A stretch of DNA of 64,000 bases from Verrucomicrobiota bacterium. GTDB taxonomy: Bacteria; Chlamydiota; Chlamydiia; Chlamydiales; SM23-39. Both the position numbers and the translations under genes were made by a program. The DNA lies in contig JAGWKU010000001.1 in assembly GCA_028873375.1 (NCBI GenBank), positions 11,763-75,762 of the forward strand, in the 5' to 3' direction. Of this stretch, positions 33,679 through 33,969 are shown one piece after another. The notes under the pieces were generated by a model that saw only the letters and a program-made list of their open reading frames with translations, did not search any database and was not told the origin of the DNA. The first letter of the stretch is position 1. Each line of letters opens with the position of its first letter.

Positions 33679-33969
33679 CTACAGCTCGTCGGGATGCTCC
33701 GCCCCTGCCTCCAGGGGCCTACCTGCGGCTTCGAGGACCAGTCGCTACGCTTCTTTTCGCGGTATTCCCACCCCTAAAGGCGCATCGCCTTTAGGGGTGG
33801 GAATACGCGATAGGACGGCCTTTAGGACGTCCGGTCGGCAAAGTCGCAGTTAGGGTCCCTGGGCCGCGGGGGCTGCGGAATCGGGGAAAAGGTTCAGTGA
33901 ACCTTTTCCCCGCGGAGCAGGTGAGCGGAGCGAACTGGCCCCGAAGGGGAGCAGCCCGACGGGCTATAG
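33679..33969. ncRNA. Unclassified ~290-bp GC-rich, ORF-free element built of nested hairpins (structured RNA or MITE-like palindromic element)
   Basis: The terminal 22-nt arms 33679-33700 and 33948-33969 pair with 19 WC pairs, 1 G.U and 2 mismatches. The internal hairpins are 33701-33718 (7 bp), 33758-33809 (24 bp with one bulge), 33813-33832 (5 bp), 33883-33911 (13 bp, perfect) and 33939-33949 (4 bp). Long-range pairs are 33722-29 with 33863-70 and 33735-39 with 33854-58. The ORF track shows nothing here. Confidence 0.55.

Follow-up and report, generated by a model that had tools for sequence, protein, structure and literature searches.

The stretch of DNA analysed here (64,000 nucleotides, positions 11,763 to 75,762 of contig JAGWKU010000001.1; hereafter the window, whose coordinates are used throughout) carries at 33679-33969 a 291-bp element of nested hairpins, which lies between the genes for a MORN-repeat protein and RsmD, both of which converge on it. 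We read this element, with moderate confidence, as a non-autonomous, non-coding mobile palindromic insertion element, similar in kind to miniature inverted-repeat transposable elements (MITEs) and Rickettsia palindromic elements (RPEs) and belonging to a low-copy family of uncultured Chlamydiota-like bacteria. Its inverted ends, the filled and empty sites found for the family, the unrelated contexts in which members lie and their mosaic make-up are better explained by a palindromic insertion element than by a fixed gene for an RNA, and the absence of a conserved locus and of a conserved promoter was counted on the same side. The original prediction, made from the letters of the window alone, had offered a structured RNA or a MITE-like element as candidates; the MITE-like half of this gained support from the inverted ends, the polymorphic presence and the varied contexts, while a fixed RNA gene at a single locus did not.

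Filled and empty versions of an insertion site were seen at two loci, although exact junctions are unreadable in these comparisons, which are at 55-76% amino acid identity. For homologs of the element, relatives were sampled using as a probe a 21-bp palindrome, AATGTAAAGCSGCTTTACATT, one copy of which ends 25 nt before the element at just the spacing predicted; this palindrome was present in 119 metagenome stretches from the Joint Genome Institute (JGI; ~700 kb in all, on contigs of 30-58% G+C), and the sample was then searched with nhmmer. At the first locus, downstream of rsmD, the element is missing in all seven relatives (L010, L001, L005, L008, L009, L144 and L145). In L010, which is the nearest relative with DNA (RsmD 76% identical), the rsmD stop codon, the palindrome AATGTAAAGCCGCTTTACAGTT and the MORN stop codon follow one another directly in a spacer of ~20 bp, and because this spacer is the palindrome alone, ~350 bp of the window (33654-34007) are lineage-specific. 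The other six relatives have coaD after rsmD (four) or unrelated spacers (two). The coaD gene follows and overlaps rsmD in L001, L008, L009 and L144 and is not downstream of it in the window, L010 or L145; the RsmD of the window also has a four-residue C-terminal extension (DVTI) relative to that of L010.

The second locus is that of another member of the family, L046, which occupies positions 906-1083 of its contig inside the signal-peptide coding region of a porin of the Chlam_OMP family, that is, the major outer membrane protein (MOMP) family. The syntenic mutL/porin locus of L102 has no insert. When the L046 element is excised leaving one TTAA, a normal signal peptide, MMRWFFLKLITALPAFGMYVGNP, is restored, and L102 reads MRWFFLFLVSPLFAAYVGNP at this place. 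The L046 insert is in frame with the porin, at 58 codons with no stop; the same frame is open through the whole of a further copy, L079 (94 codons), and in the window element a single TAG, at 33850-52, breaks it. In-frame insertion was seen in this one case only, and the window copy is intergenic. Translated, the 3' arm of the L046 insert would give the porin a new hydrophobic stretch, FVTCLGLGLITA.

The element in the window has 64% G+C against a window mean of 46.8%, and it is both the strongest fold and the highest G+C of any 150-nt stretch in the window, where only one other intergenic region is a comparable outlier. Just two open reading frames (ORFs), of 27 and 35 amino acids, overlap it. 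Of the 22 positions of its terminal arms 19 are complementary and three are not (C.A, U.G and A.G), and an arm pair like this was found in 0 of 100 shuffles. Folding energies are -187.8 kcal/mol for the plus strand (z -11.6) and -178.2 kcal/mol for the minus strand (z -11.0), and in neither case did any of 200 shuffles fold as well. These results uphold what had been said of a GC-rich, ORF-free element of nested hairpins closed by 22-nt inverted arms, and of its place between a MORN gene and rsmD, both gene identifications being confirmed. The parts of the element and its immediate flanks are as follows.

33633-33653, no strand: copy of the 21-bp palindrome, AATGTAAAGCCGCTTTACATT, sharing one base with the MORN stop codon, the last of that codon
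33654-33678, no strand: left spacer, AT-rich, of which 33666-33676 (GAAAAAATAAT) pairs with 33979-33990
Ending at 33673: weak promoter-like site in the left spacer, TTTACA-16-AAAAAT (9/12 match)
33679-33700, no strand: left terminal inverted repeat, CTACAGCTCGTCGGGATGCTCC, with TA at 33680-81 as a possible target-site duplication
33701-33873, no strand: imperfect palindrome of 173 nt centred on hairpin B (nhmmer match to its own reverse complement, E 8e-15)
33701-08/33866-73, 33710-20/33853-63 and 33723-31/33841-49: long-range helices in the minimum-energy fold, which make up the imperfect palindrome
33758-33809, no strand: hairpin B, 21 perfect bp (33762-33782/33786-33806) with a CAT loop, 24 bp when one bulged G is included; its base, CCCACC...GGGGTG, is common to the window and L079
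33813-33832, no strand: small hairpin GGACG.CC....GG.CGTCC
33837-33849, plus strand: motif GGCAAAGTCGCAG, present unchanged in L079 and as CAAAGCCGCAGC in L046
33882-33912, no strand: hairpin C, a perfect 14-bp stem (33882-33895/33899-33912) with an AGT loop
33916-33939, plus strand: conserved core AGCAGGTGAGCGGAGCGAACTGGC, 23/24 identical to L079 and mostly unpaired in the window fold
33939-33949, no strand: hairpin D, CCCC-GAA-GGGG, overlapping the inner end of the right terminal repeat
33948-33969, no strand: right terminal inverted repeat, GGAGCAGCCCGACGGGCTATAG, with TA at 33967-68 as a possible target-site duplication
33970-34007, no strand: right spacer, AT-rich, reaching the rsmD stop codon (34008-34010), of which 33979-33990 pairs with the left spacer

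Hairpin B thus stands as the 24-bp near-perfect hairpin of the original prediction, and hairpin C is the perfect hairpin that had been placed at 33883-33911, with a stem of 14 bp and not 13; two long-range helices that had also been predicted exist as complementarity, but the minimum-energy fold uses other registers. Hairpins B and C have 3-nt centres and no G.U pairs at all, and such perfect hairpins fit DNA palindromes better than RNA hairpins. Motif GGCAAAGTCGCAG forms the 3' arm of a helix in the window and is placed before hairpin C. The tips of the element read CTAC...(C)TATAG and are paired in the fold, and the weak inverted repeat in the flanking spacers (33666-76/33979-90) lengthens the rod outward into AT-rich DNA. 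Next to the closing stem, in the minus-strand direction, comes CGAUUAUUUUUUCUUU, and on both strands U-rich tracts follow the outer stem. The wider neighbours of the element are genes for TPR and VWA proteins, type II secretion, MFS transporters and a response regulator.

Homology at unrelated loci was found in L079 (nhmmer E 4e-10, reciprocal 2e-11), where the copy lies between gltX and an FNR-like reductase gene, ~40 nt upstream of the reductase start, and, as a partial relative of L079, in L046 (nhmmer E 3e-5 to L079), both of whose end repeats match those of L079. The window and L079 have hairpins B, C and D and the 24-nt core in common, and their ends differ. The core, AGCAGGTGAGCGRAGCGAACTGGC, is the best-conserved stretch of the family at 23/24 identical positions, compared with ~65% identity elsewhere. 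Hairpin C and its AGT loop are kept in L079 with two compensatory pair changes, and hairpin D there reads CTTCC-GAA-GGAAG, the change from CC/GG to TT/AA being again compensatory. Because such changes exist the structure is under some constraint, but this covariation (two pairs each in hairpins C and D, from two sequences) is not significant, as 114 of 500 shuffles reach it, and compensatory changes among two or three sequences do not discriminate between RNA and DNA. In L046 there is no hairpin B, C or D and little of the core; it shares with L079 the inverted ends, which are ~33-35 nt long in both and have outer stems that covary to either side of a conserved AAACAGGTGKCAACAAA / TTTGTCACCTGTTT, and also a segment GAGCGAAG...ATCGAT...CAAAGYCGCAGC.

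The order of the modules differs too, as the CAAAGTCGCAG arm precedes hairpin C in the window but follows hairpin D in L079. The end sequences of these elements and of the one at 4340-4520 described below are CTACAGCTCGTCGGG, AAACAGGTGKCAACAAA and GAGGCAGTTGCAAAACTC. The family members are mosaics of hairpin modules that differ in their order and in their ends. TA stands at the tips of the ends in the window, L079 and L046, and TTAA in L046. In a further stretch, L076, a module of 34 nt similar to hairpin B precedes a T-run, a tentative match given its borderline E-value of 0.025.

Two more families of the same build were seen. The first is represented by a nested-hairpin element of 181 nt with inverted-repeat ends at 4340-4520 of the window, between an MFS gene and recC, which folds with z -11.7 on the plus strand and -13.4 on the minus strand and has no Rfam match. 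L142 contains a homolog of it (5298-5479), with the 18-nt end repeat unchanged (GAGGCAGTTGCAAAACTC), an interior that is partly different and other neighbours, adjoining a dapA-like gene. The remaining family consists of a shell, formed by the end repeat AGACCTCTTGCATAAC, which encloses interchangeable cores in L031, L071 and L081. The core of L071 is present without the shell in L094, and one shell end in L031 abuts a copy of the 21-bp palindrome. Since both families share this construction of shell and core, nested palindromes are general in the mobile-looking elements of these genomes. The members of the shell family lie as follows.

L031, 11497-11691: shell and core
L071, 4590-4759: shell and core
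L081, 9164-9217: shell and core
L094, about 700-860: core of L071 without the shell

The 21-bp palindrome itself is present in eight copies in the window (5421-5441, 15642-15662, 15680-15700, 25600-25620, 33633-33653, 40040-40060, 49168-49188 and 63590-63610) and is, separately from the element, a true repeat of the source genome resembling the repetitive extragenic palindromic (REP) type. At 40040, as in L010, it makes up the entire spacer between convergent stop codons, and it could be a clade-wide REP-like terminator or protein-binding site; its sequence was not found in the literature searched. The copy at 5421-5441 lies in frame within the recC ORF, where it encodes KCKAALHL in the Exonuc_V_gamma region. 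Just before the last copy, 62770-63587 is a gene-free stretch of 818 nt which contains a tRNA (62921-63010) and of which ~143 nt are 87% identical to L075.

At 512-1177 the window has a distant MOMP-like ORF. The RsmD of the window is identical to a protein of a metagenome-assembled genome which NCBI labels Verrucomicrobiota. This label of the source genome is probably wrong, because the closest RsmD relatives are labelled Chlamydiales, because of this MOMP-like ORF and because relatives sharing the palindrome have Chlam_OMP-family porins.

No known RNA accounts for the element, in agreement with what had been predicted. Rfam 15 at the gathering threshold found two tRNAs in the whole window and nothing on the element, and at permissive E-values only generic microRNA-hairpin models matched, to the 21-bp hairpin B, which is sub-threshold noise. 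No Rfam family matched L079, L046 or L142, and ARAGORN found no transfer-messenger RNA in L079, L046 or L076. A resemblance of CCCCGAAGGGGAGCAGCC to signal recognition particle (SRP) RNA was rejected because its AGCAGCC part is unconserved in L079 and no SRP model scores. A retron was also considered and rejected: no reverse transcriptase adjoins the element, whose neighbours are the MORN gene and rsmD, and the ORF after the L079 copy is the FNR-like FAD/NAD-binding reductase. A terminator scan gave no canonical terminator at the element, and no promoter-like site is common to the regions upstream of the window element, L079 and L046. The plus strand has eight G.U pairs in the fold and the minus strand three, the energies being 5% apart, and so small are these differences in the family that a choice of strand by G.U counts or energies was rejected, as no strand had been assignable before; a choice for the family of 4340-4520 was inconsistent after allowing for homologous orientation.

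Searches for further copies gave little. Exact-pattern scans with the end-repeat consensus had no matches in genome and metagenome contigs, and those with the hairpin-B arm had none in genome contigs; as these scans missed even the source contig, the source genome lies outside those collections. Viral contigs contained no match to the patterns of hairpin B and hairpin C, to the 24-nt core or to the end pattern of L079 and L046. An 18-mer from the end repeat matched them 13 times and the end repeat of 4340-4520 once, and these were set aside as chance occurrences in coding DNA, G+C-rich in the case of the 18-mer. BLASTN against plasmids and phages gave nothing meaningful, six-frame pseudo-protein searches found no copies mis-called as ORFs, and no REP-associated tyrosine transposase (RAYT) was seen in the neighbourhood of the element. 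The end repeats have a likeness to what we take to be the ends of IS5, mariner and IS6, to which no weight was given.

Several of the results weigh against a mobile element. Searches of the 64-kb window by patterns, by repeats, with BLASTN and with nhmmer all gave a single copy of the element, and in ~50 kb of contigs of the L079 sample, whose origin from a single organism is not established, L079 itself is the sole match. The many dispersed copies with target-site duplications by which the original prediction would have recognised a MITE were not found in the sequence covered, the only candidate duplication being TA; and since TA and TTAA are self-complementary and could belong to the stem, they are weak evidence of target-site duplication. 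No reverse transcriptase, transposase or integrase lies within ~10 kb, as had been noted before for reverse transcriptase and transposase, and of these it is the missing transposase that tells against mobility; matching ends of an autonomous insertion sequence (IS) partner were found nowhere else in the ~810 kb searched. The end repeat of the window element is unrelated to that of L079 and L046, which is unusual for one MITE family. The plus orientation is marginally more stable and richer in G.U pairs in the window, L079 and L046 alike, and the near-identity of the core together with the compensatory changes would equally suit a functional RNA.

Those last points lead to the reading that the element is an independently transcribed structured small RNA (sRNA) gene of a new family, ~290 nt long and on the plus strand, with the single-stranded 24-nt core as its functional site, for example a platform for binding protein or RNA, the gene having been relocated between loci in evolution. 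The extreme stability of the fold, the conservation of the core beyond that of its surroundings, the paired changes in hairpins C and D, the shared lean towards the plus orientation, the single copy per sampled stretch and the weak promoter-like site, which would put a start at ~33680, all speak for it. We nevertheless consider an sRNA gene unlikely: the syntenic site is empty in seven relatives, L046 has neither the core nor hairpins B, C and D and is located within an ORF, module order is not conserved, the promoter-like site has no counterpart upstream of L079 or L046, no Rfam family matched, the covariation is not significant against shuffles, and old functional RNAs do not typically have perfect stems of 21 and 14 bp closed by 3-nt loops and free of G.U pairs.

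Growth in place is an explanation which we think quite improbable, namely that a cis-acting bidirectional terminator or insulator arose here from local palindromes by template switching or duplication and without any transposition. The site between convergent genes would suit it, beside a palindrome that occupies this very position in L010, as would the U-rich tracts after the outer stem on both strands, the stand-alone, terminator-like module of L076 with its T-run and the varying content of the spacer downstream of rsmD among relatives; but the terminator scan came back empty here, a G+C of 64% is foreign to the AT-rich spacer, and purely local growth cannot explain the element because homologous sequence lies at unrelated loci elsewhere, including within a gene. 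That the element is an artefact or chimera of assembly might be thought of because the source is a contig of a metagenome-assembled genome (MAG) and the contrast in composition between the block and its flanks is sharp. It is very improbable indeed, as independent metagenome contigs from other samples carry homologs of the same architecture, imperfect nested helices reach into the AT-rich flanks and no phage or plasmid record matched. To readings other than these four we give a small share, slightly less than to growth in place.

Were the element a mobile palindromic insertion, as we prefer, it would have been moved in trans by a transposase encoded elsewhere, possibly into a TA or TTAA site. 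Its nested hairpins may have come about by palindromic units landing in, or swapping cores with, other palindromic units, and young hairpins may be held perfect by quasi-palindrome template switching. After insertion it may be co-transcribed with rsmD, the MORN gene or both; whatever the origin of the element, read-through from either of these genes would necessarily transcribe it. The transcript would be predicted to fold into a very stable multi-hairpin RNA, able to stop transcription or to block 3' exonucleases, and from the modelled closing stem followed by CGAUUAUUUUUUCUUU one may reasonably suppose that it would act on the rsmD operon as a terminator or 3' stabiliser.

A tentative and rather unlikely extension is that environmental Chlamydiota have here a new sort of mobile structured module whose core and covarying hairpins act as RNA, as a terminator, stabiliser or protein-binding platform, or else a mobile sRNA gene; in this reading the open frame would let such a module colonise coding regions as Rickettsia RPEs do. 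If that is true, it would be the first RPE-like, coding-compatible system of palindromic elements known from the phylum, or else would amount to a true mobile sRNA gene. Should the palindromic insertion family itself be confirmed, reduced, host-associated chlamydial genomes would also carry hairpin-mosaic elements, and such elements would remodel 3' and 5' untranslated regions and even sit in the signal peptide of an outer-membrane porin. Elements of this kind mimic structured RNAs in fold-based screens and may break short-read assemblies, and the family and the clade-wide 21-bp palindrome are together useful annotation markers for these MAGs.

Proteobacteria, Cyanobacteria and Rickettsia have well-documented palindromic mobile elements of small size, and no description of such elements in Chlamydiota was found in the literature searched. 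Rod-like sRNAs such as 6S RNA resemble the element in their paired 5' and 3' ends, long closing stem and structured, non-coding nature; the element differs from them in having no Rfam match, an unconserved locus, perfect long hairpins and an architecture that varies between homologs. Yeast mitochondrial GC clusters are G+C-rich, hairpin-forming palindromic inserts, and the repetitive hairpin-forming elements of sponge mitochondria are likewise G+C-rich palindromic inserts which have repeatedly invaded AT-richer spacers (PMC2800124). These organelle elements have a different kind of host, much shorter units and many copies.

Bacterial MITEs such as the Correia/NEMIS elements of Neisseria, the enterobacterial ERIC/IRU, the pneumococcal RUP and the cyanobacterial Nezha are, like the element, non-coding and of 100-400 bp with terminal inverted repeats, intergenic and often at gene ends, polymorphic in presence, possibly targeted to TA, and co-transcribed, as the element may be, with predicted stable hairpins. 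At 291 bp the non-coding element is within the size and coding limits of MITEs (under ~600 bp, non-coding). Each of these MITE families numbers tens to hundreds of near-identical copies and can be traced to a parent IS, whereas the element has one copy per sampled stretch and no parent, its end repeats vary by member, it contains several independent perfect hairpins and its G+C is far above that of its host.

In being built of modular hairpin units which make up larger foldable structures, the family is like the mosaics formed by REPs, by REP doublets forming hairpins (REPINs) and by bacterial interspersed mosaic elements (BIMEs; PMC3733652, PMC2817692), which also prefer spacers between convergent or co-directional genes; REPs have been reported inserted within palindromic targets, giving nested palindromes (PMC3733652). 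The CTAC...(C)TATAG tips of the element recall the GTAG tags of REPs. REP units are however of 20-40 bp with unpaired GTAG or CGTC tags, high in copy number and linked to RAYTs, whereas the element is ~10 times longer and single-copy, with its CTAC/TAG tips paired and no RAYT seen.

A further likeness is to the RPEs, reportedly described by Ogata et al. in 2000. RPE-4 and RPE-6 are cited elsewhere as CGTC REPs (PMC3733652). RPEs, like the family found here, belong to a host lineage of obligate-intracellular type, are palindromic, can lie in frame in protein genes without breaking them (as may be so in L046) and have no dedicated transposase known, and the family has, as RPEs do, one frame that is open across members, in L046 and L079, with its one interruption in the window. 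RPEs are unlike the element in being of 100-150 bp, AT-rich like their hosts and multi-copy, against a single in-frame case here, and no sequence similarity between the two is expected because their G+C content and phylum differ. The family is newly found and of a known kind of element, and on present evidence it is not a categorically new system.

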